DNA of 63,926 nt, counting the filler, from Dugesia japonica (Eukaryota): NCBI GenBank assembly GCA_001938525.1. It is 5 parts of 5 records of this genome, joined end to end, with 100 filler letters (N's around TTAATTAATTAA, not from the genome) between each part and the next. Parts side by side here need not be neighbours in the genome. Positions count along the whole stretch, not along the records: positions 32,685 to 53,337 come from MQRL01640044.1; 4 more parts are not named here. One strand, given 5' to 3'. Positions 24,128-58,040 of this stretch are shown one piece after another. Under the pieces are notes generated by a model. That model made no database searches. It was not told the origin of the DNA and saw nothing but the letters and a program-made list of their open reading frames with translations. Numbering within the stretch: position 1 is the first letter of the stretch; each line of letters starts with the position of its first letter. The position numbers and the translations under genes were made by a program.

Positions 24128-24227
24128 NNNNNNNNNNNNNNNNNNNNNNNNNNNNNNNNNNNNNNNNNNNNTTAATTAATTAANNNNNNNNNNNNNNNNN
24201 NNNNNNNNNNNNNNNNNNNNNNNNNNN
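24128..24227. other. Artificial contig linker N44-TTAATTAATTAA-N44
   Basis: Same structure as 9534-9633. Confidence 0.9.

Positions 24228-26087: not shown

Positions 26088-26092
<5 letters not shown>

Positions 26093-26122
<30 letters not shown>
26093..26122. repeat. (TA)n microsatellite
   Basis: Direct observation. Confidence 0.95.
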
Positions 26123-26123
<1 letters not shown>

Positions 26124-26309
26124 GTATGTGAATGCGTGTATGTATTATACAAAGAAGTACAATATTCCTATTGGTTGCTATTAAAATAATTATGTATGTT
26201 TGCATGATAATAATATTTGATTGGTTATCAAAAGACATAAATTGTTAAAGTAATAGAAATAAATTCATTATTTGAAACGATATGTGTAACTTTAAAAAAT
26301 TGTTAGAGG

Positions 26310-28680: not shown

Positions 28681-28739
28681 TAGTGATAAATCAACACTTA
28701 AATCACACTCTAAACCGATTGAAGTCTTCAAAAGTTACA

Positions 28740-34389: not shown

Positions 34390-35150
34390 GATTTGGTCGA
34401 ATTGGATTGATTGTGCTCGAATACTTCTTTGGTGTTTATTTGCTTTGGACTTGGTGTTTTTTATTTTTTTACATGTTATGTTTTATATATTTTGCCTGCG
34501 TGCTATGTTATGTTCAAATCTCAACATCATTGTCATGATTTTGCCGCATTCATTCCGTGGATTATCTATTTCTACAACTCATTCTTGATCAGTATCGGAG
34601 TTATCATTGATTTGCTCTATATATGTTTGTTTAAATAATTGGATTCTGGTTGCTATACTTACTAGAGATTTTATAATAGCGATCTTACTAAGTTTTGGGA
34701 AATTAAATTGTACATTTAAGTAAACTGTAGTAGAAACTTCTTCTTCTTTGAATGTATTATGCAAATGAGGCATAACCCCAGATAGTTCTGTTCGTCTTTC
34801 ATAAATCTGTTCCTTTAAATTAATTAAAAGTTCATTGCTTAGTGTTGAATTTATTTTGCTCAGCTCTTCAAATAAAAACTTAAAAGTGGTGTCTGCTGAA
34901 ATTAAATTTGAATCTTTCCAACACAAAGCTTTGACGGCAAGTATTGCTGGTTGAAGTGCGGAAATAGCTACATATATTGCTTCAAATTCTTCGTCACTTA
35001 AAGAATCTAATTTTAAATCTATAATAGATTTTGTATACAACTCTTTAGCTTATAAAATCGTTCTTACATTGAAAATAAACTATTCCAACGTGTTTTACAA
35101 TAAATATTAATATCAGTTCCTTACCGAATTCAGCTTTGACATAAAGTTGC
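34390..35150 (-). mobile_element. hAT transposase fragment
   Basis: CKTRWNSLFSM*ERFYKL (hAT TRWNS motif), followed by ...ALQPAILAVKALC..DSNLISADTTFKFLF. Confidence 0.85.
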
Positions 35151-35526: not shown

Positions 35527-36202
35527 TTAAAATATGCATACTTGATCATCTTCATAATTCTCCAACCATACAGATTTTAACAAAGGAACATCACCAACAA
35601 TTATAGGTTCAACAATATTACTATAGATGAACATTCGATGTAGATTAGTGATTAATTTCGGATATTTAGCACTAATGAATTTAGTATGGACTATATTTAT
35701 ATAATGGCGAGTATATGTTTTTCTGTCTAATCTCAATGATTTTGCCAAGAAATTATCGAATGTAACACTTTTAACATTTTCCAATAACGAAAATCGGAAT
35801 GGTTCATCATTTTTTATAGTAAATGTTTTGAAAACAGACTTACTCATTTTTGTGATGAAACGACTAAATTGGTCAAAATTCGATATGTAATATTCGTTTT
35901 GTAAAGATATGAATTTATTAGTTTCTATTGAAAACACTAATTTCATNNNNNNNNNNNNNNNNNNNNNNNNNNNNNNNNNNNNNNNNNNNNNNNNNNTTCG
36001 TTTTGTAAAGATATGAATTTATTAGTTTCTATTGAAAACACTAATTTCATTTTCATAACATCAATCGAATTATTCTTTTTTAAGTTTTGATATTGTATGG
36101 TAGAATCTGATTCTTTATTATTCCTTAAAGTATTAAATCCAAATCTTTTGGCATCTTATAAATTGTCAAATATTACAACATAATCATGATGTTTAAATAT
36201 AA
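35527..36202 (-). pseudogene. Maverick/Polinton minor capsid (penton) C-terminal fragment
   Basis: RMFIYSNIVEPIIVGDVPLLKSV motif. It is homologous to 54591-55103 (QLYIYSSIVDLILFGDVRVLLLRSI; DAKRFGFN versus DARLLGFN). Confidence 0.75.
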
Positions 36203-36601
36203 TTAGTCGGGGGATAGTAGCGCACGACCCCATTTTTTTAAAGCAGTTATCAAGGATTTAATACACCTTGAAAAAATTGGCAAAACAATCGAGATATACA
36301 ATGTAATACCTGTGGAAGACGGAGACATATAGCCTGCGACTGTAGGAGTAGAGGTAATAATAGCAACAACAATCGATTTTGTGCCTATTGTAAGAAGACT
36401 AACCACAACATAGAAACGTGTTTCTTGAAAAATCCAACCGTCTGCTATAAGTGTAACAGAAGAGGACATATGGCAAAAGAATGTCAAAACGGTAATAAAA
36501 CAAATTATAATCGGAATCCGAATACGAATTTGGATAATCTAATGCAAGAAAATGAGCGATTAAAGTAAAAAGTAAATCAAAACAAGGGACAAGTTAATTT
36601 A
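36203..36601 (+). pseudogene. gag: Gag nucleocapsid with three CCHC zinc knuckles (missed by the ORF track)
   Basis: From 36302: CNTCGRRRHIACDC, CAYCKKTNHNIETC, CYKCNRRGHMAKEC. Same frame as ORF 36602. Confidence 0.9.
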
Positions 36602-39309
36602 GTGCATCAAAGTACTTTCGACAATGTGTACTACAAGGTGCAACAGGAAAATGACTGGCTCAAGTGGCAAAACCAAGATTTGCAGGTACAGCAGGAGAGA
36701 CTAGCCAAAAGAAACCTATTAAATGAACCATACAAGAATCAGTGCAATATGGTTAGGACGCACAGGCAAATTTATAACCAGCATGACGAAAAAACGGAAG
36801 TTACCGAAATGGAAGATACTCGAAAAAGAATATTGATTACGTCGCAAGAATTTGACTGGACTAAAGAGATCATCTATAAAACAATAAAACCGTCAGTACC
36901 GACCACCGGAAGAAGGCCACTGATGAACCAGTTCCTCCGATCATATCAACACCCACAAGTACACGCAAAGGTAAGGGCTAACTGGCAGAAAACAATATCG
37001 GATTATATCACCGAGCTGTATAAAGAAACCCAGTTAGAAGACTATGAGTTAGAAATTCAATATGTATGGCATAACAACGTAGAGGTCATTCCAAAAGGAG
37101 TTAAGGTACCATTAAAAGGGTTGAATGTACGACATTTGAAAGAAGCTATGAACGAGATAAAATGGAGCAAAGTAAATGGTATCAAGGGATGACTGTAAAC
37201 TCGTTTCTCGAATTACCACCGTTTGACGCGCAGCAACGATGGAATGGAAAGTGGAGTGAGCACAGACTGCTATTAGGTAATATAGGAATCAATATTCTTC
37301 CAGATGATCGGAATCTAATATTTAACGGAGCACGACCCCATGAAACTACCATAATTAAATTTATAAATTGGGATTCGGTATTCCGACCACAAACAGTAAT
37401 TCAGGAAATAGAAACTGACGAACTATATCATAATCTTGAGGAAACATTCCTAAAGGAAATCGTTCCAATCCAGTCTCAAACATAAATACGGAAACGATTG
37501 GGGACGGTAAGGCTAATGGACTATCCAGAATTGGAATAAGCCAAAGCGTCACGATTATCCTTGGCACGAATTGATGAGATACTGATAGCGGCGCAGAAAT
37601 TACATGACACGATAAAGAAAGAAGTATACCTAAAGTTGACAAATCGATTGGTCGAACTATTGGAAGTGATACAACTAATTACCGAGTGCGAAAGCGATTG
37701 GACAGAATGGTTACCGGTGCATTACGAATGGGTAATATCCAACATGGGATTATCGGATTACCAAGTATGGCTATATAACCCGGAAGGAAATATGAAACTG
37801 ACGCTCATATGATTAATGGTAGAGGATCTGGAAGCTGCGCTTAAGCAAGCTGGTTATCCAAGCATAACCGATAAATATGTATGCACACCAAGTGCTATGG
37901 TAGATTTTACCGCCAGAAAGAAACATCTATAAGATTTTGGAGTAAAACCAGAAGAGGGCACTGAAATCGTAGTATTGGACAAACACCGTGGTATCGACTA
38001 TGACATCAGGATAACAAAAACCGGAAGATCAGCTTTAAAAATCATAGGAGAAATGGAATATCTATATAAACAAGGAGTAGAGCCAATTAAAATCAAGATA
38101 CTTTCCACGGTACTCGAAAAAAAAGATAAACTGACAAAGGAGGAGAGGAAACAGTTGTTAATGACGCGTAACGACTTCCTCACGCAGCGATTGGAGAGAA
38201 AAGAGAGGAAATGCAACATGATAAGAATGCGACAGATGCCATCGAGAGAGGTAGTAGCAATGCGTAAGGTGGAAGAAATGGTTAACCGAGTACAGATGAA
38301 GAAGGAGAACCTACCCCGAGAAACCTGTCGGATGATAATGAATAGAATCTATGACATATATGACGGACTAGAAATACCGGAGGAAATCGAGAACCAATGG
38401 CTCGTGATTAGGCAGAAAAAATATTGGCAAATACCAAAATTCAGGAATCTAAATTATATTTGAATAAAGGTTAAAATGAACAAGAACTGACTAAATACAG
38501 TCGATTAAAACCACAAGGAATAACCATGATAGATTTAATGGATGCCATTACCGATAAGTGGTGAGAACAAGAACTAAACATGGTACCTCTGTTCATAAAT
38601 GGCAAATTGGTCGAGACAGACGACGAGGATAAGCACATATTCCAATGCCACGTAAAGCCTGGAGAAATATGTGAGTTGGATGTAGATGAGGAGCCATAGG
38701 CGGGTCAATCACCGGATCTCGAGGAGTGAATGGAAGAGATAACAGAATTATACGTATCCGAGGTATTGTCTGGTATAAAGAAACAAGTAAAAGAAAATCA
38801 GCGAATACAGAATATTGATAACCTACCAATAACCACCACCAAATCAGTTGTATTTCCGGAAGGGACACCAACAATACGCGATATTCGGATGAAATATACA
38901 AAACCGATAACGGAAAAATCCGCTACGTTTCACGCTATCAACGATCTGTTAAAAGTAACCCGAGAAACTCGACCAGTTGTGAATATCAAAGTATATCGGA
39001 AAATGATGAATAATCTACGGGATTTGGCAATTTATGGACAGCTCAGCTTGTGGGCTCCAGCACAATGGTTGAAAGAGAAAAACCTATACAAAGAGGAAGT
39101 ACAGAATACATCCACTTTATCCGACTATTCTCTCAGAGTCAGCCTACTTAGTAAAGAGGGAAGCATAAAAAAGGTAGATATGAGAACGCTGAAAGGACTA
39201 ACGATCAACCATATCATAAAACCAATCAAGAAATGGCTATGGCCAAAATCACTCAAGTCCTATAAAATGCAAGCAGAAGCAACAAAGATTATATTAGCCG
39301 AGAAAGAGA
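36602..39309 (+). pseudogene. ~900-aa polyprotein region of unknown function between Gag NC and the glycoprotein (ORF pieces 36602, 37162, 37561, 37975, 38730)
   Basis: Near-continuous coding fragments on one strand, broken by stops and frameshifts; no motif recognised. Confidence 0.6.
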
Positions 39310-41615
39310 ACCACTACAATACTCTTATTATCCCTAATGATGGGCAGAAGTGAAGCCATATTAGCATACGACTGCGATGGAATGCAAGTTGGAAAGGAAG
39401 TATTCTCATTAATGGATACAAAAGAATGTACAGATGCAAACCCAGAGAAAATCTTACTCCGTAATAATTCCATTTATCATCTATATTAGGAGTCAGATTA
39501 TTATAAGGCCAAGTACGCGAATGTACAGTAACGGTAAAAACATTTATATTTTATTGTGGGTATTACAGTTAAACTTCGGTCATTGATCCAGGAACAGTAA
39601 GACATCCTGTAAATCTAACCGGACAACAAAGCGATGAAGGATTTTCCACAGGAAAGATCACCATCAAACATGGGACTCAGGTCATCGCCAAGAAAGGGCA
39701 TGTAATCGACCAACTCATAGAAGCAGCAGGAAGTATATCTTCACATAAAGGTCACTGCGAATACGGTACATACACTATACGAGGAAAGGTCTGGGAGTAT
39801 GCGGTAGCAATTGAAACCTATAACGTATAACTCAAGGAATACGAGGCATTCTTTGATGCCCAAGATTTGACTTTGTAAGGAAGGTTATATTGCAAAGCAG
39901 CAGATGGATCAGGTAATAAAGGTACATCAACATTAACATATAAAGTAGAGCACCAGGACTGTAAATTAGCACACTTAAAAGAAGCAATGTTCAATTAATA
40001 TCAAGGGCAACGAGCTATAACGCCTATCGATCAAGCACCAAAGGAGGGTAATCTAAACGATAGAATAGATAATCTCAAAGAAACGATAAGATCAGGGCAA
40101 AGATCATACGATCAACAATGGCACACAACTCCTAAAGTGTTAATGTCCTCAGAGCAAGATGAGACCATCCGGCTAATTAAAGGAAATGCAATGTCAAAGT
40201 GTGGGCAAATAGAGTATAAAACGAACTACAAAGGAATATTCGTTTCGGAACATCGTATAAAAACAGCTCAAGCCGCAGTGATGTCACAGGATATCAAATT
40301 GCATCTGTATGCCAATAATAAAATGGATAATTTATTTCATCGCATGTAAGATACCATCGGACATATGTACCACGATCTTATTCAAAATGACTGCACAATA
40401 AATAAAGAAATATTGAAGACAAAATTAGCAATGGCGGTTACAAACCCAGATAGTGTCACTCCTCTACTTCATTCGGTAGAGTAGTAGGAGAAGTAATTTA
40501 CCTGTACAAATGTAAGGCTATAGATGCAAAAGTTCTCTTCTAATCCAAAAAACTGATATAATGAAATAGAAATTATCCACAACAACGATAAACGGTACGT
40601 ACAACCATTTACGCGAATCATATCACCAATGGGTTATAGGCCAAATATCATAAATTGCTCTAACGTATTTTGGCCACAATACATAATGACAGATGGTTCA
40701 TGGATACGATTTCCGTAACGAATGGCAGTGAGAGTCGAACCACAAAAATTCTCCATGTTACGGTTGAATAGGGGTATGCAATTCACTCCAATTGACGTAA
40801 ATAAAGGAGGAATTTACAGCCGGGAAGATCTGGAGAAAGCCAGGGAATACATGCTGTTCCCAGTCCGAAGGATGCAAATTCTATCAAATATAGTACAATT
40901 AACCAGTGGAACTAACAAAGATGAACGAGTGAATTGCGATGCATTATTGTCAGCAGATCACTTTCAAAAAGTCACAGAAAACGTAATGCAAAAAATGTGG
41001 GGACGATTCATCATATTTGGACAAGCAATGGCAGGATTGTTGGGAGTTATGCTGATAATTTCGGTAACACGAGTAGTGATTACTCAATTGTTCGCATTTT
41101 TTTATATATACAAAAGAGAGAAAAAGGTGAATTGGAAAATGGTAATGGGATTATTTCCATTTTTAGCCAAGACTATGGTGCTTAATAGTCACTCCAAGGA
41201 TATTGACAGGGTAAAGAGATTCATTCCAAAACTCGGACAAATACGAGGATCAGNCAAGGAAGTTATAATGCAACTCAGACTATTATGCGAAGAAATGAGC
41301 AACGCTAAGAAGAAAATATCTTATTTCAACCAATTCAAAGAAAGATTTAAAAATAAAGGCGAAAGTAGTAGCAACAGTGACGACGTTAGAGGGGAAAGCA
41401 GTGGAACCCCTCATGTACCCAATTATAAAACTGCCATGGAATATGTCACAGAATTCAAAAGGCAGCAATACGAAAAGATCAGCAAAATGCAACGACTAAA
41501 AAACGCGTTAAAATTCGGAGGAGGAGAAAGCACACCAGCACCAGCGCAAATGTATTATTACGCCTATCCGCAACATGGTTGGCAACCCATGAACCAACCA
41601 CTCCAACAAGTATGA
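39310..41615 (+). pseudogene. env: Chuvirus (Jingchuvirales)-type envelope fusion glycoprotein, decayed
   Basis: Signal-like TILLLSLMMGRSEA|ILAYDC...FSLMDTKEC; REC.V.VKTFIFYCGYYS*TSV; GEVIYLYKC; QPFTRII..NCS..PQY...GSW; GGIYSREDLEKAREYMLFP; TM region WGRFIIFGQAMAGLLGVMLII. This motif series matches chuviral glycoproteins as I know them. Confidence 0.85.
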
Positions 41616-41809
41616 GCACCAGGTCCCATGTACAACAATCCGTATGTAAGCCCACTACAAGCCCAGAATATGGCGCTATTAACGGATAACAATGTATCAA
41701 CTATGGACCGAAGAATAATCGAACAAAACTTACGTACTCCAAATAACCAGATTAAGGAGGAGGATAAGTTAGAGACTCAAACCGTATGTATGATGATTTC
41801 TCAAAAAGC

Positions 41810-42100
41810 AAAATTATTACAGAAAAGGATACAAATCGACGGAAGATTGGTAATAGCTATTATTGATACAGGAACAAGTACGACGTTAGTCCATAAGAGG
41901 ATATTAGAAGATTATTGCCTACTTAGAATAACAATCAAAAAGGAGTTATCATCACGGCCTTTGGAAAAGAAAAATCTCACCCATTGGAGAAGCAATATGT
42001 GCGTTAGAAAGCGATGGAATCCGTTTCTGGCATAAACTGCAAATAATGAACGAATTAACGTTCGACTGTTTATTGGGGTTGGACCTCTTGCCACGCCTCT
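41810..42100 (+). pseudogene. Retropepsin aspartic protease domain 1
   Basis: IQIDGRLVIAIIDTGTSTTLV (DTG at 41865-41873), then after a frameshift ...FDCLLGLDLL. Confidence 0.85.
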
Positions 42101-42439
42101 GTCCCGAGGGAATATTGGATTTGAGAAAACTAACGATACGAGAAAACTACGATTAAGAGTATGCACTGGTAGGATATCAGAAAACTAGTATAATAACCCA
42201 ACAGAAACGACCACAACAATTGAATCAGCCAACACCCAACCGACTGAGACAGCGGCCAACTGGCCGAAATAAACAAAACAATTCGAATCAAGACCGTCAG
42301 AAAATCACCAATACAACTACCTTGATAAGGGGCGATTGGATAAGGTTTCAAGAACGAGAACCAAGATGGAAAAACAAAATACCAACAAACTGCAATCATA
42401 ACCCTTCAGATGTAGTATGCGCAAGTCTCAATGGCGGAC

Positions 42440-42723
42440 CAGTATTAACCATTATAGTTAAAATCAACGGCCGACCCATAACAGCCCTATTGGATACCCG
42501 AGCAACCATATCGTTGTTGTCAATAGATGAAATTGCGATAACCGAATACAAAAACACACTACCCACAAACACTATAGCAGATGTGGCAAATGGTAGTAGC
42601 CTCAAAATTTTTGGAGAATTGGCCTGTGAAGTCAAATATCAGGTTAAAAAAATTAAACACAATATGATCATAGTAGAAATGATGGGCCAGTGTATTCTAG
42701 GGACAGATATTCTTCGAGTCTAG
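42440..42723 (+). pseudogene. Retropepsin aspartic protease domain 2
   Basis: VKINGRPITALLDTRATISLL (DTR, one base from DTG), ADVANGSSLKIFG and CILGTDIL. Confidence 0.85.
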
Positions 42724-45700
42724 ATGAAAAATGGCATATTAAACTTCTCAACATTACGGTTACAATCATTGAAAGGTTATACCCGTGTGAAGGATCACGA
42801 AGAAGAAATTTTGGTACCCAGTAGATGCCAAGTATATTGTGTGGTCAGTACCAAAAGTGCCTATGAAGGAGATTGTTATTTCGAACCGTATGACGGATTT
42901 ACACACCAGTACGAGATACCCACGGCAGGAGGAATAAACATGGTCAACAAAAGTGGGGAAGTACCAGTTAACTTAGTTAATTTTACAGAAAAAGATATCA
43001 CAATTAAGCCAAACTCCAGGATGGGTACACTAACCCCCATCGAACCTGAACCCGAAGTGATAGAAGAAATAGCCCCTGAACCGGAAATTGATAGAACATT
43101 TAAAGTGGAAACGGAAACTTTATCAGAAGACCAGAAACAAGCAATACTACAATTGTTGGAAGAATTTCGAGATATTTTCGAATGGACCGATGAAGAGTTG
43201 GGTATGTGCACAGCAAAAATGCACGCAATTCCGTTAACAGACGAAACTCCATGCAAACAGAAGCCATATGCCATGACAGTGGAGAAAAAAGAGTTTGCAA
43301 ATAAAGAAACAGCTAAATTAGTGAAAATCGGTGTGATAGAACCATGGCAGTCGCCAGTAGTGTTAGTAGATAAAAAGGATGGGACGCAACGATTCTGCAT
43401 TTATTACAGACGGTTGAACGCTTAAACTAAGAAAGACACGTACCCATTGCCAGATATCAAGGAATTACTGCAATTACTTTGTAACGCTAAAATATTCACT
43501 ACGTTAGATTTGCGAAGCGGTTATTGGCAAATTTAGATCAAACCAGAAGATAGGGAAAAAACAGCCTTTTCCACAGGCAAGGACTTATACCAATTTATCC
43601 GTAGGCCATTTGGACTTACTTATGCACCAGCCTCTTTCCAACGAATGATGAATTACGTAACTCACGGCATATCTCAATGTATGGCCTATATCGATGATCT
43701 ACTTATCTATTCGCCAACCTTTGAAGGGCACCTTAATGACTTGTGTATTATGTTTGTACGACTACGTAAATGGAATTTAAAAGTGAAACCCACCAAATGC
43801 GAATAGGCCAAGAATAAAGTAACCTATTTAGGCGAACTAGTATCGGAAATTCATTAAGGATTTCGCTAAAATTGCGAAGTCAATGCAGGATTTGGTTAAA
43901 CAAGATACTGCCTTTAAATGGGGACCGGAACAACAAAAGTCGTTTGAAACATTACGAGATAAATTACTAACTGCACCAATTCTGGTACACCCAGATTTTA
44001 AGAAGCCATTTATATTAGCCACCGACGCTAGTGGATACGCGATGGGTGCAGTGTTAAGTTAATTAGACGAACAAGAAAGATAAAGAGTAATCGCATATTT
44101 TAGCAAGAAATTCCAAGGAGCAGAGTTAAGCTACAGTACTACAGAACAAGAAATAATGGCTATTGTAAAAGCCACCAAAGATTTTTGATCACTTATACAT
44201 GGTCATGAGGTATTAATCTATACAGATCATTTACCAATCACTTTCATGGCTCAGAAACCATTACGATGGAACCGGATGGCAAAATGGCAGTTAGCAATGC
44301 AGGATTATTGTCCATTATTAAAATTTAAAGCGGGAAAAGCAAACTCAAATGCCGACTGCCTGTCCAGAATTGGTGGACCAGAAACTACAGGAAATACACC
44401 AGAAGATTTCGAAACGTTTACAGGAATTATTAGAGAAAAAAGTAGGCATGGTTTACTTTATACTAGCTGAAGATAGGAATTTTGATGGATTTAAACAAGC
44501 GCAAGCTGACGATGAGGAAATCCAGGTAATCACAAAATATATGGAAAATTACAATTTAGAGAAGTTAGAATGTGAACCCAAGATGAAGGAACACCTAAAA
44601 AAGAATGAGGGTCGTTATGCAATTACCAAGGGTTGGTTGACAGCTCAGAATGGAGATAATACCGTGTTGGTTATCCCTAAGGCAAGACGGGATAAGCTAC
44701 TTGAACAGTATCATAATGGTGTATTAGGAGGACATTTGTCCCATAAGAAAACTGAGTCAAAATTAAGACAGAAATATTACTGGCCACATATGACAGAATC
44801 AGTGCTGCCAGAAGAGGAACAGGAAAAGGAGTAAAAGCGTTATTAAAGCCCATCGCTGTACCAACCGCTCCAATGGAAATCTTTGCTATGGATGTAGTTG
44901 GACTATTACCTCCAACCCTAAGCGGAAATATTTACATAGTTACCATAATGGACTACTTATTTAAATTCCCAGAAGCATTTCTAATGAAAAATCAAAAGGC
45001 AAAAACTATAGCCGATATTTTGGTACGAACATTTTTCAGCAGATACGGTGCACCAAAGAAAATACTGACGGATCAGGGAAAGAGCTTTATGAGTAACATC
45101 TTAGCAGAAATATCGAACTTCCTTAAAATCCACCAACTACGAACCTCACCTTATCATCCTCAAACAGATGGGTTAACAGAACGATTTAATAAAACTTTGA
45201 TCAATATGTTGTCCAGTCACGCTCAAAAGGAACAAAATAACTGGGATAAACCTATTCAACTATGCCTATTTGCATATCGAATGAGTGTGCACCCCGCAAC
45301 TAAATACACCTCATTTGGTCTTATGTATGGGAGAGAATGTAACATGCCTATTGACTTGGAATTCCAGCCACCGATAACCTAATATCAAGATGAAATGGAC
45401 TTTGCCGCAAATTTCAAAGAGACCATACAGAAAATATGGAAACAAGCCAAAGAGAATGTAGGATTTTACCAAGAAAGTTATAAAGATTTACACGATAAAA
45501 CAGCAGTGCAACATTCTTTTAAAAAAGGCGACATGGTATTAATCAATTTACCAGACATTTGTGTCGGTAGGACATCGAAATTAAAAAGACCATGGCAAGG
45601 ACCGTATGAGGTAATCGAAGTAACAGAAACTACCCTCAAGGTTCGAAAGAAGGGGAATCTACTAGAGAATCCAAAGATCTACCACGCCAACTTGTGTAAA

Positions 45701-45775
45701 AAGGCAGCAGTGACAGAAGAAGCTGCGCCAGTCACAAGCACTGAGCCCACCGCAACAAGCTATGATGGTACTTAG
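42724..45775 (+). pseudogene. pol: Pol: possible dUTPase-like linker, reverse transcriptase, RNase H, integrase (zinc finger, DDE core, GPY/F)
   Basis: SPVVLVDKKDG.QRFC, LDLRSGYWQ, PFGL..APASFQR, YIDD (43687), TDASGYAMGAVL, YTDH, H..GGH...YYWP, MDVVG, TDQGKSF, PYHPQTDGLTERFN and WQGPYEV. Several stops, frameshifts and small deletions. Confidence 0.95.
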
Positions 45776-47080
45776 TAAACCACTAATAAATCCTTCACCA
45801 TGGAGGAGTAAAGAAACAGTGGTAAAGAAAAACAGTCTCAGGGAGGACGCTGAGTTTGAAGAAAACGGGGAAGGATTAATAACGGGAAAAAAGAAAAAAG
45901 AAAAACAAGAAACGGGTCTACCTGCTGCGAATATAGAAAGACCAGAAACATAGTTACGAAGGATAACTAAGGTATTATAGATGGATGTTTCTGAACACGA
46001 CATCAACCAAGAAAAAGCTAAGGAGGGTAGTACAATCATAAATACCTCACCGAGTATTTCGGGGATAAAACAAACATGTAAAAGAGGTAGAATTAAACAT
46101 ACACTGAGCAATATTCAATCTCAGCAAACGCAGCAAAGTGCATCATTGATTAATAATAAAGAAATTGTTAAGAAACAAAGAGATAAAACATTGTCTTTCG
46201 ATTCAGGTAACCAAATGCGCCGACCACTCATGATAGAGGCTATGAGTGCCACCACAATCTATCCAATCACATATCAAGGAATGCAAACACCTAGAGCAGA
46301 GGAGAATTGTGCCCATATCGGAAAAATAACATGCCCACTGACAGTAATGCAGTTAGAAAGAAACTGTTCACAATGTATAAAGAAAACGCAAATTATACTA
46401 AAAACCACGTGGAAGGCTATTTACGATCAGAAAGCATGGTTATCAAGATGAGAAAATTGGTTCAAAAAAGAGTCTGAAGGATCACAAATTGAGCTACCAA
46501 TTGAAGCACCTATCCGGCAATCCACCCTAAAAAAAAGTTGGGTTTATCTTGTGCCGAAGTATATAGTGAAGAATTGTTAACATCTGTTCAACTATTTCAC
46601 CATATACTAGTGCAATGGAATTGGATTAGATTATACGAACCATTGGAGATCCAATTGCCAGGGAGCATGATTACACCAGCTATCCAAAATAAATTAACTT
46701 GGAAGAAATCGAAACCAATCAATATCGCAAATTTTCATGAAGAGTTTAAAAAGCAAAGGAATTTGACGAAAGAAGCATTTCAGAATCAAGGGGACGAAAG
46801 GAAGGAAAAAGAAAGACAACTAACCAGAATAACGTCGGGAGGAAGAATAAATTAGAAGCGACATTAATACCAAAAGAGGTGGATCAAAGAAAACCAAGAA
46901 AACAAGAATGGGATTACAATAATAGTAGTTAAATTATCTCTACTATTATGGGCAATAATCAACACAAGTTGGGATTACGGCATATTAGTGTGGTTAACTA
47001 CGAAACTTATCAGAAATACGGAGAAGGACAAACCCATATAAATTATAATATACGGAATCACATGGATAATTCTACTCTGA
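45762..47080 (+). pseudogene. Post-integrase coding region of unknown function
   Basis: Consecutive ORF pieces 45762, 45981, 46538 and 46948; charged and low-complexity, with one C/H-containing segment (CAHIGKITC...CSQC). Confidence 0.45.
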
Positions 47081-48648
47081 TTGATATCACCAGCACTGGC
47101 AACACAACAAGCACAAAAGTTCAGCCAAAATAAAATTCTTAGTATCAAAAGTATATTGATTATCTTAATAACGGCTATACAGGAAATACAAAGTCAGGAA
47201 TGCTGGGTGAATGAACCAGTATTGACAGAACATAGGATAGCCACGGGAAAAGACGTATCCATTAGTCGCTCGGGATTATTAAAAAAGTGGAAAACACAAC
47301 CAATGCATTATACCGGGAAAATGGCGCTAGTACCATTAATAAAAAGTCAAAAGAGCACAATGGTAAAAATAGATGAAACAAAAAGGAGAATAAAAGTACA
47401 CCTCTTAAGCCAATCGCCAATAGAAGGCCGAGTGATATAATTTGGTCTGGATAAATGGGTAATAAATTCCGTGGTGGATATAAAATGTGAAAATCCAGAC
47501 AATCCATTATTGTATGAAATNNNNNNNNNNNNNNNNNNNNNNNNNNNNNNNNNNNNNNNNNNNNNNNNNNAAATTCCGTGGTGGATATAAAATGTGAAAA
47601 TCCAGACAATCCATTATTGTATGAAATGAAAGCAGAATTTGAAATAGTGGGGAGTTGCAACATCCTGATATACTATATAGAAGACAACCTTTGAACTAAG
47701 AAGTGGGAAACGCGGAAAACCCAGAACCAAGAAATAAAAATATGCGCAAGAAGCGAGTTTAACTATCATACCATTATTTGACAGTTCCAGCGCTATCGAG
47801 TAAAAAAATTTGGAGAGGAGATAAAAAAGGAAGGGCAAACAAGTATAACCTTTAATCAAGGTAAAAGAGTGCATTCAATCATTGCATCATGAATTTAAAG
47901 ATTGGAAACCATATTGGCAAATGGGCCCATACTCATTCCAAGTAAAAAAGATCAAGAACAAATATTACCTAAAATTCGATAGAAAGATTGAGCAATTAAT
48001 ATTGCACCAATTCAACGATTTTTCTAACTGGTGGTGGAAAATGGATACCGGGTATTGGCCTGTGAAAGCAAACGCAGAAATACATTTTGGAGAATTAAAT
48101 AAAGATATACTGGGAATCGAATTTACGACTGTAATAAACCAAGATCGAGTAATTAAAAAGAACATAACAAAAGAACCAGAGTTAACTACCAAGAAAATCA
48201 CCACAACTTATCCATCAACGGTATCGATAACCACAGAAAAGGAAAAACTCAACACAGAGTGTAACCAAGGGAAAGGAGAAAAAAGATCTCAATTCCTTAA
48301 CAATTGGATGATGAATATACGCAAATTTGAATCTAGAGGAAACTATTGGGAAGTAATGGAAGGACTCTCGACTACATATCGTCCAATTACCAAGTTACAC
48401 AAGTAAGAAGTCAGGAAATGGGGTATGTTGTGGGAAAAGGAAGCGCCGTCATTACAATACTCTTAATCAGCATCGCATGCATATGCAAATCGCAACCTAA
48501 GAAAAAGAAATACCATCGTCATAAAAAAGAACGCCCTCTACCTTTAGCACCACCAAGTTATGAAGGGCTGATACAGAGAATGCCATTTGAAACATTACCA
48601 CCTTACATGCCTTGGGTGTACCTGGTACAAGGGGTAATGACGTGCTAA
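47081..48648 (+). pseudogene. Second type-I membrane (env-like) protein at the canonical env position
   Basis: Signal-like ILSIKSILIILITAIQEIQS|QEC, a Cys/Trp-containing ectodomain, a Thr-rich stalk (TTKKITTTYPSTVSITT), TM VVGKGSAVITILLISIACIC, basic KSQPKKKKYHRHKK, and a tail with PPSY (48550-48561) and LPPY. Confidence 0.65.
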
Positions 48649-48748
48649 GCAAATGTTGAATTTGTGTAAATATTGTAAATTAGAACATAATAAATATATA
48701 TAGATGTAATTAACATTATCATATTAACAAAAACCAATTATTCAGAAA

Positions 48749-49351
48749 ATGAATCAGATCGGAAATGAAAGTGATTATACAAGTATAAACGAAAATGAAT
48801 CAATGGACTCACAAAGTGGACTAAAGAATGCTAGTATGACAAGTTATATACGTAGTAATTCGGTCAGGAGCACTACTTCAATAAATAATAATAACGCCAT
48901 CTGTTCCCAAAGAACAATCAATGAAATATGGAGAGACCATAACGAAGCAATAAAAGAATTATGGAATAGTGCAAACACCCAAATGCAATGGACTCAACAA
49001 CGATTAGAAGAACTAGAATGCAATCAAATTCAACTAGTACAAACCCTAATAACAACGAAACCCTTAGATTGGTGCGAATTGGACTTTAAGAATAAAATCT
49101 TACAACTACAGAATGAAAATCTCTACTCAGAAACCCTTATGTGTCGGAAACAACTAATAGAAAATCGACGAATGCTGGAAATCGTCACAGAAAAGCAAAA
49201 CTACCCAATGGAGTTGGTAGCTAAGCAACACGACCTAATCCTCGATCAGTCAAAAGAACTTAAATACCTAAACAAATTAGTAAATTCACAAAGTAGGGAA
49301 ATCGAGACACTCAAGACCCTGAGTGTCCGCAACCAAGTCAGTTTTGTCTGA
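48749..49351 (+). CDS. Accessory coiled-coil protein (200 aa, intact ORF)
   Basis: S/N-rich N-terminus then heptad-rich helices; TTCAG|AAAATG context. Confidence 0.6.
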   Translation: MNQIGNESDYTSINENESMDSQSGLKNASMTSYIRSNSVRSTTSINNNNAICSQRTINEIWRDHNEAIKELWNSANTQMQWTQQRLEELECNQIQLVQTLITTKPLDWCELDFKNKILQLQNENLYSETLMCRKQLIENRRMLEIVTEKQNYPMELVAKQHDLILDQSKELKYLNKLVNSQSREIETLKTLSVRNQVSFV

Positions 49352-49598
49352 AATCTAAGAGAGAGGGGGAGTTTTTAAAAAAAATATATATATAAAATAA
49401 ATAATAAAATAAATAAAAATAAAGAAGTGATTAATAAAAAAATAAATAAGTAAATACTTATATTTATGTATATATATGCCTGTATTCGACACAAGTAAAC
49501 CTGTACTCGAAGTAATATAACATGATGTATAAGAGGAAATCAAAAAACAATATAATAGTATTATATAATCAGAAGTAATAATATATCTCTTGTAGATA

Positions 49599-50643
49599 AT
49601 GGAATTCAATTTCGAAATATCAATACATGAGGTTAGACTATTTTTGGAAGACCCAGATATCAAATCGTTGGACATGAGCAAAGGACGAGAGGAAATCAAG
49701 CAAACCCCAGTAACACAAAACATAATGCACTACCGTAACGTATTTGCAGCACCGGAAAATTTCATAAGTAAAAGGGTGTGTTACAGCACAATGACAGTTT
49801 TTGATGAGAAGTACACAAATGGGGCATGAATGAGCAACCCAATAGAGCACATAGAAAATGGTTTCCTACCTGTCCATTCCTGCTAAATGTAGATGTAAAC
49901 AACAAATCCCAACTAATTAAAGGAAGAAAGCCCGAAATCGAAGAATCAACAATGGAGACAAAAAAGTTATATTGTAAAATAATAAAAAATTTAGCGGAAG
50001 TAGCAGTCCCAGAGGATCTCGAATTGAATATCGAAGAAAGAGAAAAACCTTCCAGAAAATACCAAATCTGGAAGAAAAAACAATGGAAGGATTATATCTC
50101 GTCCAGCAAACCAGAGATAAAGTTATCAAATGCGCCACTTGCAAACGAGAAACTCTACTACTTCAAGGAATAGAGAAATTACCAAAGAAAATATTCCATC
50201 AACCGAATTGTTTAAGATTAACACCAATCAACAACGAAGAAACACAACCAACAGCATGTAGAATCGAATGAAATATGTCGAGTAAAAGAATAGAAATGGC
50301 AATGGAATTACAGACTAACCAGCTGGCTAATACCTTAAAGTTATATAGGATGAATATCAAACAGTTAATAAAACAAACGGTCGCAGAAAAAGGGTCTGGA
50401 CTAGTCACACCATATGAGTTATACCAAAGATCACTCAAATCGGTAAAACCACAGGTGAAATATGAGCAAGAATGGGTTTTGCTAGATCATGATTGCGTTA
50501 TCTGCCTTGGAGAGACCATTGAGGTCATATTTTTGTCATGTGGGCATTTCAAAACATGCTATAAGTGTGCTTTACACTTAAATGAATGCCCTATGTGCCG
50601 AAAGGTAATTAAACACAGGGTATGGGAAATAAAATTTCAATAA
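49599..50643 (+). pseudogene. iap: Inhibitor of apoptosis (BIR - BIR-like - RING) carried by the retroelement
   Basis: BIR1 end HKWGMNEQPNRAHRKWFPTCPFL has W-x9-H-x6-C spacing. BIR2-like GLYLVQQTRDKVIKCATCK...FHQPNC. C-terminal IAP-type RING CVICLGETIEVIFLSCGHFKTCYKCALHLNECPMCRKVI. Two frameshifts and one in-frame stop. Confidence 0.87.
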
Positions 50644-50741
50644 ATCAATAAACTGAATATGTAAATAATATATAATTATATATACTTATAACTGTCAAAA
50701 TGGTATTAAAATAAATTAATCACTCTCCCTGATTTTAGAAA

Positions 50742-51116
50742 ATGAACACTGAAAACTTGATAAACCATTTGCGTAACGAGATTCAAATATTGCAAATTCA
50801 AACCCAAACTCTTACCACTGTACCTGAAGTCCTAAAATGGAAATTGGAATCCAAAATCGATGCAATATCAAATTTGCAATTGCAAAAATATAATAGTGAG
50901 TTGGAAAGTCAAGTCGAAAGAGCGCACCTAGAGCTAGAAAATAAAAAACGATCCTGCAAGTCCCACAAAAAATAAATTAAAAGTAACATTGATGCAAACC
51001 GAGCAAAAGTAAACGCGATAAAACAGGCTCGCGAATGGAAAAGCAAATACGAAAACGTGGAACCCAAACGTAAAGAATCCGAAAGCAGTCAACATACCGA
51101 AGGAGAAGTAGACTGA
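50742..51116 (+). pseudogene. Accessory coiled-coil ORF (one internal stop at 50973-75, open again to 51116)
   Basis: TTTTAG|AAAATG context; heptad repeats. Confidence 0.5.
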
Positions 51117-51375
51117 TAATCATTAAAGTCGATGTAAATAAACTGTTATTAATACCTAGACTATAAATTACTTATTAATAATAATCGGATAAAGGAACTT
51201 TGAAAATATTGATGTATACAGTAATTAAATGTATAGTGTAGAAAGGTTTTATGTATGTGCTGAACAAATAACCTGTAATGACCTTAAACTCATATTGATC
51301 TGTCAGTTTTATTGGGAATAAAGGAGTTTCTGCAACGAGGATGGACTATGGCAAATTCCGGGACGGAATTTAAAC

Positions 51376-51391
51376 AAGACGGAGAGCGATT
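51376..51391 (+). promoter_or_regulatory. Polypurine-tract-like sequence before the 3' LTR
   Basis: CGGGACGGAATTTAAAC-AAGACGGAGAGCGATT, immediately followed by TGTTGGG. Confidence 0.65.
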
Positions 51392-53337
51392 TGTTGGGAT
51401 GAAACACCCGCTAAACGAGAATAAAGCCGAAAAGGCAGATCAACGAAAAGAATAGCAGAACCACTATAGTTCGTAATAATGAAATAAAACATATAATCAT
51501 CATTAGAGGGGAACAAATTAAAATCCAAGATAAATATGAAGAACCGGGTAACATAGAAGCAACTTATGTTTGGAAATTAAGAAAAATTATTAAATTAATA
51601 ATAAATAGCAAAGAAAAGTGGTTTTAAAATAATTAATTAACAAAAGAAAATTAATTAATTTGAAAATAAAAAAGAAGCGCAATTAGTCAAAAATCTGTTT
51701 TATCCAGATAACTTCGTTCAAGGAAGTCAGAAAGAAACCGGACAAGAAAAAATGAGAAGAACATCAAGATACAATTGAAATAACGAAGAAGAAAAACATA
51801 CCACCTTGCAGAAGGGTACTGCAAGGTTTCCAAGATCCAGCCAATAGAAAACCAATAAATAAAAATATAACAAAGACACAAATGTCAGGTGTCATGATAA
51901 AAATAGCTGCCAATTGCAGCACCAAAATTCTTAGAAAAATTTAGAAAATTGGCTCGGTAACCAATAATATCCAATAAAGGCTGATCCAAAAATAATTAGC
52001 AAATCTAAATCAAGTCGGGGTGTCTCAGAAATCATATAAAAAGACCCCTGAGTTTAACAGAAAAAAAACACAAAAAAACCAAAACTAAAACCACTAATTT
52101 TGTAGATTCATTGCTGTGAAATTATATCAATTACCGGTTAACCCAAGGTATTAACGGAATAATATTAGTTATCGCGTATCAGTCGTGATATATCAGAAAA
52201 TTAACGTAGTTTAAATTTTGCGGTGTGAATCGTGAATAAATTTATTATTTAGAAAACAGGGAATTACAAGAACTCTCAATTCAAGAATCGCATCCAGTAA
52301 TTATTCGAATATTATATATAAACCCGTTTCAGGAATCTTATTAGTTTATCCCAAAGGAGATTAATTCGAAGTAATTAATATTTTGATTGTATTAAATGTG
52401 TGTGCATATACAATTTATTATAATCTACTCTAATAAATTTGATTGTTTTAATCTGCTATTATAGAAAAAAAAATTCATTATAGTTTATCTAATAAATTTA
52501 GCTTTGATAAATTAGAATTTTGCTTTTGCTATAATTTCTTTTATGAAATTTAGTCATATTAAAATTCTTTACAATGCAGGAATATTAGTACATAAAATTA
52601 AGAAATAGGAACGATAGAGGATGAAAACCTCATTACAATGGTGATTCTTGAATTTAATATCGTTTCCCTGTATAAACTAAATTTAATTAATATTTTTCGG
52701 ATGAATATCAGAGAATGTTTTAAATAAACGGGAAATGGATTACAGTGAGTTACTACATTCTTATCTCTTACGCTACGGTTAAATAAACGAATATGTTTTT
52801 TTTATTTTATCAGATAATCAAACTACATGACTGATCCTTTAACGCAAACATTAAAATTTATCCGGTTTGAACGGCGTAAATCTCGGAGAAGACAGTTGTT
52901 GACTCACATCTTATCGTGTGGTGTAGTCGAGCACCCCGACGAAACAGATCTCCAGTATTTCGCCGAGATGTTTCCGTCCAAGAATCGAGTTGATATAGAC
53001 GAGGAATAACCCATTGCTCCACTCTAGGATGAAACACCAACGTGCCTCAGGTGGAGCGTCTGTGGCACGATGGACCTTCCTTAATCGGTGTTACCACAAA
53101 TCGATTGCCTTCCACTTCGCAATTATCCTCCTTTGTTCAAAACAATCTTTGGAGTGCACGAAATGAGGCTGCTAATAGCAACAATGAAAAAACCGAGGAA
53201 GAAATTACAGAAGTTTCCGTGTAATGTTATTAGGCAGAATAAACGTTGTTAACCAACTCTTCATTTTTTTGTATCAATTAACCCACTTATCTTCTTTTAC
53301 TAAATTATTTATAAGTTAAGATTCAGACTTTGTTCAT
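51392..53337 (+). repeat. Putative long 3' LTR (start TGTTGGG; end not seen before the linker)
   Basis: TG start after the PPT. TGTTGGG is the inverted complement of the CCCAACA LTR end at 33750. CCAAT-rich stretch at 51910-51975 and TATA-like CATATAAAAAG at ~52033. Confidence 0.55.
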
Positions 53338-53437: not shown

Positions 53438-53983
53438 AATTTAATTGTCACATTGACCCCCGGCAACAAATATTTTGGTTAGTCAAAGAAATCCAAATTA
53501 AGTGCACCACAAAGCGTTAGCTTTGCAAATGTTTTAATCGAACTCTTTCTCTTGTCATCTTCTTAATGATAACCAATGGCTTCAAGAAAAGTGTTTTTTG
53601 TATCCGATCTAAAATTCAACGCGGCTTCAATTAACGACCTTTGCATATATAGTCCTTTGTATCTTCAATCTTTACATTAGTTAGTGTTATTGATGTTTCT
53701 TTGAATAGAGTGTGAAGGAATAATTGGAAAGAATCATGTTGATAGTGTCAGTTGATGCAAAATCCATTCCATCATGTTCCACTGTCTTCATTTTAATAAG
53801 GAGCAATATATCATTCAAATCCAAGTAACCATTATCTGAAGCAATAATATTGAATTCAATTTGTTGTCTAGCATACCCAGTTAAAGAATTTTCAGGGTAG
53901 ATTTCTAAAAATGTTGAGCTTTCAACAACAACCTGTGGAATATTGTAGTCAAAAAGCGATAATTCAGTTTTTCCGATCTACAT
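53438..53983 (-). pseudogene. Maverick/Polinton major capsid protein (double jelly-roll, hexon-like), N-terminal part
   Basis: KTELSLFDYNIPQVVVESSTFLEIYPENSL...IEFNI...YLDL, NYFLHTLF, RSLIEAALNF and GALNLDFFD*PKYLLPGVNVTIK. Confidence 0.85.
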
Positions 53984-53985
53984 GC

Positions 53986-54348
53986 TTATTTTGCAAAGAT
54001 ATTTTCGTCTAATCGTCGTCTTTGGTTTATAGTTGATGCTATTTTATATTTTTGTTTACGTATTCTACTACCATGCTGTCCATCAACAACTTCATTTAGT
54101 GCATAAAGTGCATTTTCCTTCACATCTGGCAACATATTCATTGCTTGGTTTTTGATTGAATCTTTAAATGACTGTTTCTTGCTTATAACATCATCAACAG
54201 TTTTTAGTGCTGCTTGCCTTACCGACTTTGCAATTGGAAGTCCAAATTTCTGCAAAATTGAAATCGCAAAACGATCAATTTTCACCACCCTACTGTTGAC
54301 TACGATAAAATATGGCAAGTCCCCACCCATTTGTGGACGACTATACAT
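53986..54348 (-). CDS. Maverick/adintovirus small conserved protein between penton and major capsid
   Basis: QMGG...RFAISILQKFGLPIAKSVRQAALKTVDDVIS..SFKDSIK, amphipathic with a basic tail; position between penton and major capsid. Confidence 0.65.
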   Translation of the reverse strand: MYSRPQMGGDLPYFIVVNSRVVKIDRFAISILQKFGLPIAKSVRQAALKTVDDVISKKQSFKDSIKNQAMNMLPDVKENALYALNEVVDGQHGSRIRKQKYKIASTINQRRRLDENIFAK

Positions 54349-54404
54349 TATGATAATAGCACGATCAACCATTTCAATAATAAATCAAATTGTAATCAAA
54401 TTGT

Positions 54405-55756
54405 TTAAACTTGTCGAAAATTTAGAGTTAAACTTGTTTTTTATCTATATTGAAAATCAATCAATCTTCTCGCATCATCACGTATGTTTACTTCAATTTT
54501 GTTGATGGAAGATGGTGAAACAGGTAAAAACATTAAATTTTCAAGTCTTACATGTACAACATCATCAAATGAATGCCAATTTCTATTAACTCATATACTC
54601 CTCAAAAGTAGCACGCGTACATCACCAAACAGAATAAGATCGACTATTGATGAGTAAATATATAGTTGTCTGATACCACCGTGTAATAATGGTTTATGCA
54701 AACCCTTTACTTGTTCTGTAGACTTGTAGAATTTTGCAGAAGGAAGACCGTGTATTAGCGAAAGACTCTCGTCGAATGATACATATTCAAAATTATCAAG
54801 TAAATTAAACATGACCACTCAAAATTTTAAATCTATAACAAATTCTTTAAATATTTTGTGGTATAATTTTATAAATGACTTAACCAGATTATTCAGATTT
54901 GTAACCATTAAATCATTTTCAAATTCAAAATAATTTATTTCTGTTTTNATTTCAGTAAATTTTAATTTAACATTAGTTTTGGCAATATTATCCAACATTT
55001 GAGTATCTGATTCGATAAATGAGTTCATTGGTATATTTTTCGTCTTTTGCGAATTAAATCCTAGTAACCGAGCATCAAGCAATGATTTAAATTCCAATTC
55101 CATATTGCAATCAGATTTGATAATTATTTTCTTTTGACCATTAATACTGATTTCGCAATTCTTTTTATTTTTCTATCCAAAAACAACAGGTTTTCCATTT
55201 TTAATCTCAACATTTACTTTTTTTTGAATTTCTTTTATTCTAGCCTTTTCTTCCTCAATAGAATTACACTTTAATTTTAAAGATATTGATGGAATATTTT
55301 CCAGAATCAAATGCTCATCAGATTCAATAACTGAAACTAATGGCTTCTTTTTTTATTATTGATTAAATGGAATCCAAATTATTTAGCATCTGAGAACGTC
55401 TTAAACTCCATTTCTACTCAACAATCTGTTTTTAATATTACTTTCTTTTCATTGAAAAATATATACCAGTTATATTTATTGATAGGGACTGTATTATTAA
55501 GTTGAAGACTACCATTTACATTACTTAATTGAAATTTATCTTCAATTTCCAACACTTCTCTTATTTTATATTCAATTTTTTAACCTTTTCGTATAGTCAT
55601 TGGACAATAATTGAAAACAAATTCTGTCATGGCAACTTCCCAAGGGTCATCTTTTAAAATGATGGCATTCTCATAGTCAACGAAATACTTGCTTGAATTA
55701 TTATCAGTTCAAGTTTTTGGACAACTATTGCTTGGCAAAACCATATAGAAACTCAT
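54405..55756 (-). pseudogene. Maverick/Polinton minor capsid protein (penton)
   Basis: N-terminus MSFYMVLPSNS...NNSSKYFV....I.L.DDPWEVAMTE; C-terminus LYIYSSIV....GDVRVLLLR...IEVNIRDD...IDF...TSLTLNFR. Confidence 0.85.
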
Positions 55757-57464: not shown

Positions 57465-58040
57465 TAATTTTCTCGGTGAGATCGAATGTGGTCAATTTTT
57501 GACTAGTTTAGATCAAATTGATCTAATTTTTCCTAGGGATTGGGAATTTTTTAGATGATTGGGTTCAATTTTTTCCCCGGTTTTGGTCAGTTTGTGTACT
57601 TTTTGGGCGATTCGATCAATTTTTGGGTGGTTTAGGTGAAATTGGTCCAATATTTCCTCGGGATGGGTAATTTTTGGGTGATTAAGGTGGAATTGGTTGA
57701 ATGTTTTCTTGGTGAGGTCGAATGAGGTCAATTATTTGGCTGGTTCAGATAAATTTAGTTCAATATTTCCTCGGGATTGGTAATTTTTGGGAAATTAAGG
57801 TGAAATTGGTCAGATTTTTCCTCGGGATTGGTAATTTTTTGGGTGATTTAGGTGAAATTGGTTGATATGTGTTTCTCGGTGAGCTAGAATATGGTCAATA
57901 TTTGAATGGTTTAGAGTAAATTTTAGGTGATTTGGTCAAATAATTCCTCGGGATTGCTCGGATTCGGTAAAGTTTGGGTGACTTGGTCTAATATTTCCTC
58001 AAGATTGGTCAGTTGGGTTAATCTTTGGACAATCTTTGAC
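57465..58040. repeat. Left arm of a long inverted repeat, made of internal tandem units (GGTGAAATTGGTC...TTTCCTCGGGATTGGTAATTTTTG)
   Basis: Near-identical reverse complement of 62610-63135; it produces identical 72-aa pseudo-ORFs on opposite strands. Degenerate units continue to ~58520. Confidence 0.9.

Follow-up and report, generated by a model that had tools for sequence, protein, structure and literature searches.

Giant Ty3/gypsy elements that carry an envelope gene are already known from planarians. In the available part of PMC6431247, the Burro elements are described as more than 30 kb in total length, with long LTRs; env sits in the same frame as gag and pol, between the two, and gives mononegavirus-like matches. 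Burro ORF1 has 4,873 aa, and its domains include a dUTPase-like one between protease (PR) and reverse transcriptase (RT), SUMO-like and Bcl-2-like domains before env, as well as BIR, MATH and ankyrin domains. GAG-ENV-POL errantiviruses with an HSV/gB-type Env of cysteine-bridge class C1a are reported from flatworms, nematodes and bryozoans in PMC13524379, which argues that the pairing of gB-type env with Ty3/gypsy pol is ancient. Burro1 B-IAP (Lee et al. 2026, Dev Cell), as presented in PMC13465017, is a BIR-RING IAP, and in mosquitoes the Anakin elements of the BEL/Pao superfamily carry a chuvirus glycoprotein (passages of PMC12440569 and PMC10084718).

We analysed a stretch of 63,926 nt from Dugesia japonica (GCA_001938525.1; hereafter the window), in which an element was located between positions 36,203 and 53,337 (MQRL01640044.1). 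It very probably belongs to a giant Ty3/gypsy family, present in many copies, of the Burro or GAG-ENV-POL errantivirus kind; this copy is decayed and has lost its 5' end, and the host is likely a planarian. Working copies would encode one long polyprotein comprising Gag, cargo, a gB-type fusogen, proteases, RT, RNase H (RH), integrase (IN) and a second predicted membrane protein.

Organization and ends of the element

All modules were found on the plus strand and in the order initially annotated. Plus-strand ORFs of at least 80 aa cover 12,156 of 15,078 nt, which exceeds chance (a mean of 686 nt and a maximum of 1,926 nt in 100 base shuffles). A dUTPase-like domain that the initial annotation had overlooked was added. 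The GC content of the element is 38% versus 27-28% in the flanks, an A-rich skew is continuous across 36.5-52 kb, and pol shows the PR-RT-RH-IN order of Ty3/gypsy elements (Metaviridae). From the CCHC knuckles to the end of the second membrane protein, the element spans 4,125 codons. The copy is decayed, as had been proposed: its alignments with the related locus L002 contain at least 21 stops and several frame changes, and every pol module is broken. For a flanking DDX5 gene, nine of the ten best named matches are flatworm proteins, which take the first eight ranks. These matches point to a flatworm host, and a planarian is made likely by the env likeness described below and by the low GC content.

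The 5' edge (36205..36271) is abrupt and is marked by a change in base composition, without LTR, primer site or capsid domain. Contigs and reads matching up to 36204-36205 continue with different letters, and the element meets another repeat there; a search of the window revealed no copy of a 5' LTR. Since the knuckles start about 70 nt after this junction, there is no room for a capsid domain. The module called gag thus consists of the nucleocapsid end (36272..36565), with three CCHC knuckles (zf-CCHC, E 7.5e-6; zf-CCHC_5, E 7.2e-7), the 5' end of the element being cut off. It is followed by a broken coding stretch of about 900 codons (36569..39350) with no Pfam match. Several relatives carry a ubiquitin-like or Bcl-2-like cassette that is missing from the window; profiles built from these relatives, with leave-one-out controls at E 8e-6 or better, gave no match in 36569..39300, a search whose sensitivity is reduced by the decay of this copy, though env was readily detected.

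The 3' end (51372..53337) comprises a weak purine run (51372-51398), TGTTGGG at 51392 and a possible LTR extending into an assembly gap. The purine run, initially annotated as a PPT, is interrupted by C residues and fails the PPT filter, whereas 18 other sites between 36.2 and 53.4 kb pass it. The base skew persists to about 52,000, beyond TGTTGGG, and no second copy of the candidate LTR on that side was found in the window. The call of a PPT and an LTR at this end is weak.

Relatives, reading frames and phylogeny

The metagenome locus L001 contains a single frame of 3,655 aa with the module order of the window. This frame holds a capsid start, two CCHC knuckles, a ubiquitin-like domain, the fusion protein, two proteases, RT, RH and IN, besides two more hydrophobic segments. 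The fusion protein, pol and post-integrase hydrophobic segments also share one frame in L002, P0128, P0131, P0144 and P0278. Thus, a giant ORF that runs from gag through env into pol, broken in the window copy, is seen in L001 and L002. The window falls with such elements inside a 22-row integrase clade (support 99/97) and a 15-row RT group (support 91/94); its branch in the RT tree is long (1.13). Two further fusogen carriers, P0144 and P0162, fall outside the clade. Nested independent insertions had been considered as an alternative origin of the locus; with the same order in one frame of L001 and the window inside its clade, the locus is one element type.

Between about 20,000 and 26,000 contigs matched the stretch in each of three DNA runs, and no single contig spanning the whole element was present among the contigs listed. 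One RNA run yielded 76 reads, none at ≥99% and none over 46266-49688.

A second predicted membrane protein behind the integrase

The broken integrase (44673..45643) retains matches for the H2C2 motif (Integrase_H2C2, E 1e-12), the core (rve, E 1.5e-12) and the C-terminal domain (MLVIN_C, E 0.001). Behind it, a high-copy coding stretch with ORFs and no firm Pfam match (45644..46850) precedes a second predicted type I membrane protein (46868..48648), broken and with an assembly gap inside. Hydrophobic segments at 46910, 47042 and 48427 were found by hydropathy, and the predicted protein consists of hydrophobic leaders, an ectodomain, a Thr-rich stalk, an anchor (48427-48483) and a tail with PPSY (48550-48561). 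The second "glycoprotein" of the initial annotation is thus retained as a type I membrane protein predicted by hydropathy alone, its ectodomain matching nothing that was tested.

In the relatives, a post-integrase hydrophobic segment was found in 12 of 15 proteins and in all seven top loci (L007 being P0002 in the tree), and the membrane protein is present twice in L002 and P0010. The ectodomain model of L001 reached a pLDDT of 82.7, and its top Foldseek matches were all FN3 pairs (E 1e-7). A predicted post-integrase membrane protein is therefore common to the whole clade, as had been supposed for this lineage, and is FN3-folded in the L001 model. No link was detectable between the window ectodomain and the FN3 repeats of the relatives, so that placing both in the same slot is based on position and hydropathy. 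Sequencing depth was 6,500-16,500 in two bins of 45777-46754, and 200-1,430 over 46868-48648, approximately 10- to 100-fold below the rest of the repeat family. The low coverage and the lack of an ectodomain match suggest that the window ectodomain is a variable cassette.

The second protein might act in the host cell instead of in entry, as a decoy or adhesion receptor or as a block to superinfection, with PPxY serving ubiquitin-ligase trafficking and not budding; we hold this to be a genuine possibility, somewhat short of an even chance. PPxY follows the integrase in one of the 15 proteins and occurs in the tail of one of the seven loci (L005, sister of that protein), and, not being conserved in the clade, makes a weak case for the budding motif initially proposed. 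The FN3 repeats resemble those of host receptors, among them LAR, Tie2 and Dscam, and the other host-modulating cargo of the clade includes Bcl-2-like, ubiquitin-like, ankyrin, RING and exonuclease domains. Nevertheless, env, pol and this protein form a single chain, and the place of the protein is kept clade-wide, with the duplications in two relatives, which fits a role in the particle; the low coverage is in line with a variable surface protein.

It is improbable that the window copy is a mosaic, with 46.8-48.7 kb stemming from rare recombination, an insertion of its own or a misjoin of different copies during short-read assembly, within an otherwise real element. Such an origin would account for the drop in depth near 46,755 and its recovery near 48,710, seen in each of the three DNA runs, for the N gap inside the low-depth stretch and for an ectodomain without homology to those of the relatives, and the left edge is bridged by none of the contigs listed. 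However, strand and base skew are the same as in the rest of the element, terminal repeats were not found, a 57-nt exact overlap flanks the N gap and one contig bridges 48468-48727. Moreover, this stretch is multi-copy, its depth exceeding that of single contigs about 15- to 100-fold, and relatives carry a membrane protein at the same place.

Envelope fusogen, proteases and reverse transcriptase

The broken env (39298..41612) matches PF24664 (Monjiviricetes_fusion) in six collinear pieces covering profile positions 5 to 579, with E 1.9e-54 for 39573-41612 when stops are read as X. Hydropathy predicts a signal-like start, a membrane anchor (41010-41066) and a long tail. Its profile match and its position between the CCHC knuckles and the protease mark it as a chuvirus-like, predicted gB-type fusion glycoprotein. 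The nearest relatives share 31-40% identity, and those with further domains are retroelement polyproteins, whereas the cluster containing the Hubei chuvirus-like virus 1 glycoprotein matched at 25% (E 3e-21), so that nothing points to a recent donor among RNA viruses. The chuvirus-like character initially annotated was confirmed. A recent chuvirus capture by the lineage of the window, as in the mosquito Anakin elements, agrees with the Pfam family and with the Hubei match but is highly improbable given the closer retroelement matches and the ancient association argued in PMC13524379.

Downstream, the N-terminal part of a first retropepsin-like domain (41829..41921; PF13975, weak at E 0.015) also received weak tblastn matches from proteases of the relatives, and a second retropepsin domain (42454..42717) matched RVP (E 1.1e-6). 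The dUTPase-like stretch (42865..43026; PF00692, weak at E 0.016) lies between PR and RT, as in Burro. RT and RNase H (43369..44308; RVT_1, E 9e-28; RT_RNaseH_2, E 5e-17; tblastn with L002) contain stops, a frame change and an internal gap.

IAP and accessory ORFs

Three accessory ORFs follow the second membrane protein: an open one of 200 aa (48749..49351), an IAP gene remnant with half a BIR, a linker and a RING (49599..50643) and a small one with one internal stop (50742..51116), the first part of which has no Pfam match. In the IAP, the BIR (E 0.006 in Pfam) is a C-terminal half starting at 49808, all of whose best PDB matches are IAPs, and the RING (E 2.4e-13) is of the cIAP/XIAP type (E 3e-10 in the PDB comparison). 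The initial annotation of an IAP is thus supported, and the IAP of a planarian gypsy element that it mentioned corresponds to the Burro1 protein presented in PMC13465017; BIR cargo is likewise a Burro feature. The ATGs at 48749, 49599 and 50742 each lie 3 nt behind an acceptor-like AG (CAG, TAG, and a pyrimidine tract with TAG, respectively), and 12 of 23 accessory ORFs stand directly behind such sites (p ~1e-5). The IAP and the small ORFs are likely made from spliced RNAs.

Proposed biology

In working copies, two internal signal sequences would lead the polyprotein through the ER membrane, leaving env and the second ectodomain outward and Gag and Pol cytosolic, and signal peptidase and the retropepsins would cut it. 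Env may fuse membranes. Class III fusogens such as herpesvirus gB depend on separate attachment proteins, and the second protein would most likely serve as a partner for attachment or adhesion whose slot is variable, filled by FN3 in relatives and by an unrelated domain in the window. The IAP may keep host cells alive, as reported for Burro1.

A broader proposal, speculative and on balance unlikely, is that the Burro-type elements of flatworms are enveloped retroviruses whose entry relies on two proteins released from a single polyprotein: a gB-type fusogen, conserved and placed before pol, and an attachment protein that follows the integrase and can be exchanged. The window family would have swapped the FN3 ectodomain for an unrelated one and kept several versions, resembling tropism cassettes, and accessory genes would be spliced as in complex retroviruses. 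A second surface protein that is clade-wide, and is different and low-copy among the window elements, offers a concrete candidate for the means by which gB-type errantiviruses find cells, and the idea is testable in a model animal group whose stem cells are affected by such elements.

Comparison with known elements

The main layout is already in print, and the locus defines no new kind of element. The initial view that the architecture was undescribed is contradicted by env between gag and pol, dUTPase and BIR in Burro (available part of PMC6431247) and by the GAG-ENV-POL gB-type errantiviruses (PMC13524379). What was not found in print for such elements is the membrane protein fused behind the integrase, which in the window has an outer part unlike that of its relatives.

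Anakin, as described in passages of PMC12440569 and PMC10084718, shares the fusogen family inside an LTR retrotransposon but differs in superfamily (BEL/Pao) and host (mosquitoes), with no giant polyprotein cargo described there. Burro1 B-IAP, as presented in PMC13465017, is likewise a BIR and RING IAP on an element, whereas the window IAP is broken. Smed_errantivirus_1 to 6 share the gag-env-pol order and a gB-type env related to Chuviridae glycoproteins; the window env is identical to none of these six env sequences and is, by eye, closest to Smed_errantivirus_5 and _6, with 45 of 101 residues identical to _5 in one ungapped block. The words "fibronectin", "accessory", "single ORF" and "fused" do not occur in the main text of PMC13524379.

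Compared with Burro/GYPSM1, the SUMO-like domain, Bcl-2-like cassette, MATH and ankyrin were not detected in the window, so that the element works like Burro but is not filed as Burro1-4; the available text of PMC6431247 mentions neither two proteases nor a post-integrase membrane protein. By description, both have three CCHC knuckles, extra domains, a mononegavirus-like env between gag and pol, a dUTPase-like stretch between PR and RT, BIR cargo, high copy number and decayed copies; the published Burro ORF1 exceeds 4,000 codons, and the span in the window agrees with its length. Domain order, the integrase clade and these published features support the enveloped-type Ty3/gypsy lineage related to Burro that was initially proposed.

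Module order of the element

The stretch at 36.2-51.1 kb is A-skewed and has a GC content of 38%, compared with 27-28% in the surrounding AT-rich animal sequence. ORF pieces of at least 80 aa on its + strand (n = 28) cover 12,156 of 15,078 nt, whereas coverage did not exceed 1,926 nt in 100 base shuffles of the same stretch; the - strand holds 18 ORF pieces (5,661 nt). A Pfam search with 40 ORF pieces from the window revealed, from 5' to 3', CCHC knuckles, about 900 codons devoid of matches, the chuvirus-like fusogen (Monjiviricetes_fusion) as six collinear pieces, two proteases (the first weak, the second clear), a dUTPase-like stretch with a weak match, reverse transcriptase (RT), RNase H and integrase, followed by roughly 1,000 codons that gave no firm match and then by half of a BIR domain and a RING. 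Against the PDB, the best ten matches of the RING were IAPs (E 3e-10), and the BIR half also matched IAPs. By hydropathy, env is anchored at 41010; two leaders follow at 46910 and 47042, and another anchor lies at 48427. The copy is decayed, as the initial annotation held, with at least 21 stops and several frame changes in alignments to the related locus L002. The ubiquitin-like and Bcl-2-like cassette of relatives was not found before env in the window using profiles from relatives, although these profiles scored E 8e-6 or better on relatives left out of their construction.

With its stops read as X, the env query recovered 571 proteins. The 18 that reached E 1e-30 or better are 26-46% identical; downstream of the fusogen, the long ones among them contain proteases, RT, RNase H and integrase. 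The best matches in an integrase search (50-56%) read in frame on into hydrophobic segments; a segment of this kind follows the integrase in 12 of 15 scanned proteins, the remaining three ending early, and in all seven top loci of the 79 recovered by a metagenome scan. One of these loci, L001, encodes 3,655 aa in one uninterrupted frame with its own ATG and stop, matching two CCHC knuckles, ubiquitin-like, fusion, two protease, RT, RNase H and integrase domains, with two further hydrophobic segments and accessory ORFs after the frame. In the integrase tree (22 rows, support 99/97) the window clusters with these elements, as it does, on a long branch, in the RT tree (15 rows, support 91/94); P0144 and P0162, which carry the fusogen but are more distant, lie outside its clade. 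Since the modules form a single frame in L001, the layout is shared by relatives and the window falls inside their clade, the module order is a property of a lineage, and the initial proposal of a single co-oriented element, not several insertions, is upheld.

Up to seven retropepsin-like stretches per polyprotein, some after the integrase, were observed in the relatives P0278 (4,844 aa), P0134, L002 and P0010, and an FN3-like membrane module lies on both sides of pol in L002 and P0010. The clade members P0131 and P0005 were deposited as bacterial metagenome-bin proteins (Flavobacteriaceae and Turicibacter labels), which is likely bin contamination.

Element ends

Contigs and RNA reads matching up to 36204-36205 run on into different sequence, and the first CCHC knuckle starts within about 70 nt of this edge, indicating that the 5' LTR and the capsid domain are missing. 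At the 3' side, 18 other sites met the polypurine tract (PPT) filter, but the purine run ahead of TGTTGGG (51392) did not; the A skew continues beyond this motif to about 52,000, and no second copy of the putative LTR was found within the window. A strong G-rich purine tract (49357-49371), directly after the 200-aa accessory ORF and followed by an AT-rich spacer, is a better PPT look-alike than the run at 51372, but is internal to the element.

Host and abundance

A DDX5/p68-like helicase exon (4990-6153, + strand) was identified by Pfam, its best named hits being from flatworms, including the first eight named protein matches (56-59%). In three DNA runs of organism A, 20,075-26,466 contigs matched 35997-50640, the largest group being 90-95% alike. 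Summed depth was 3,300-64,000 over 35997-46754, 200-1,430 over 46755-48710 and 1,200-5,200 over 48711-50640, with single-contig depth near 4-20; these values are sums over contigs rather than copy numbers, and the window itself may derive from one of the runs. Contig counts and summed depth thus reveal an abundant repeat family, and the dip over 46755-48710 means that only some copies carry the second membrane protein, or that it is less than 85% alike in the remainder. In a quarter of one RNA run, 76 reads fell on the element, none at 99% identity or above and none over 46266-49688.

The second membrane protein and a proposed mechanism

Judging from topology and general knowledge of polyprotein processing, the two internal signal sequences would place env and the second ectodomain outside, Gag and Pol remaining inside. 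The polyprotein would be cut into parts by signal peptidase and the retropepsins, env would fuse membranes, and the IAP would protect the carrier cell, as reported for Burro1.

The second protein (46868-48648) is a predicted type I membrane protein. In relatives its ectodomain consists of a repeat in which one pair of cysteines is invariant. The L001 ectodomain was modelled (pLDDT 82.7) as two all-beta domains that best matched FN3 pairs in the PDB, from LAR, Tie2 and Dscam (E 1e-7), although whole-model TM scores were only about 0.3, the two domains sitting at a different angle. The window ectodomain matched neither the relatives' repeat profile nor anything in the other homology searches tried. 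A budding motif had been claimed for this protein, but its PPSY has a counterpart in only one of 15 proteins and one of seven loci, those two being sisters, so a conserved budding motif is not supported. Within the published passages covered, no description of a membrane protein after the integrase was found; Grohme 2018, Lee 2026, Jurka 2007, Sacco 2022 or their supplements may show one. The second surface protein of the window element is probably variable. Its most likely role would be to aid attachment, to which we give an about even chance; a somewhat less likely role is to modulate the host cell.

Accessory genes

The accessory starts at 48749, 49599 and 50742 each have their ATG 3 nt behind a YAG. 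Across the window and the seven top loci, a YAG lies within 4 nt of the ATG in 12 of 23 downstream ORFs of at least 70 aa, compared with 87 of the 629 ATGs that these regions contain (p 1.5e-5) and with 32 of 324 internal Met codons (p 2e-6), the rows not being independent because some loci are near relatives. This enrichment points to accessory genes that may be read from spliced or trans-spliced mRNAs; no splice junction reads were seen. An accessory gene for an RNase_T-family exonuclease is present in four of the seven top relatives (L001 12085-13470, L002 10617-12104, L006 8592-9920, L007 9043-10371), and none was detected among the window's ORF pieces.

Other features of the window

Pieces of other gypsy pol genes, with RNase H and integrase, lie at 24229-24669 (+) and 28435-28734 (-). 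Inverted repeats of 410 nt (57466-57875 and 62730-63139), 97% complementary, 4.85 kb apart and made up of 51-nt subrepeats, likely represent a foldback-type DNA transposon. A long cysteine-rich open frame of 665 aa with C-x-C repeats (16858-18852 and 19921-20307, +), lacking a Pfam match, is likely a host gene. By eye, an ORF at 34582-35049 (-), with no Pfam match, resembles a hAT transposase remnant, and ORF remnants at 53500-55200 (-), without Pfam or PDB support, resemble Polinton/Maverick capsid and core genes.

Comparison with known elements

Planarian Burro is described as having an ORF1 of 4,873 aa with three knuckles and SUMO-like, Bcl-2-like, dUTPase-like, BIR and ankyrin domains, its env lying in frame between gag and pol and matching mononegavirus glycoproteins (PMC6431247). 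Burro1 is reported to carry a BIR-RING IAP (Lee et al. 2026, as cited by PMC13465017). GAG-ENV-POL errantiviruses with a gB-type env, linked to Chuviridae, are known in nematodes, bryozoans and flatworms, including six in Schmidtea mediterranea (PMC13524379). The initial view that the architecture was undescribed therefore does not hold, env between gag and pol being already present in Burro, there with a BIR, and in gB-type errantiviruses (PMC6431247; PMC13524379). By eye, the window env is closest to S. mediterranea errantiviruses 5 and 6 of PMC13524379, with 45 of 101 residues identical to errantivirus 5 in one ungapped block (also counted by eye), and is identical to none of the six. The window element is real and decayed; it belongs to an already known kind and carries a variant set of cargo.
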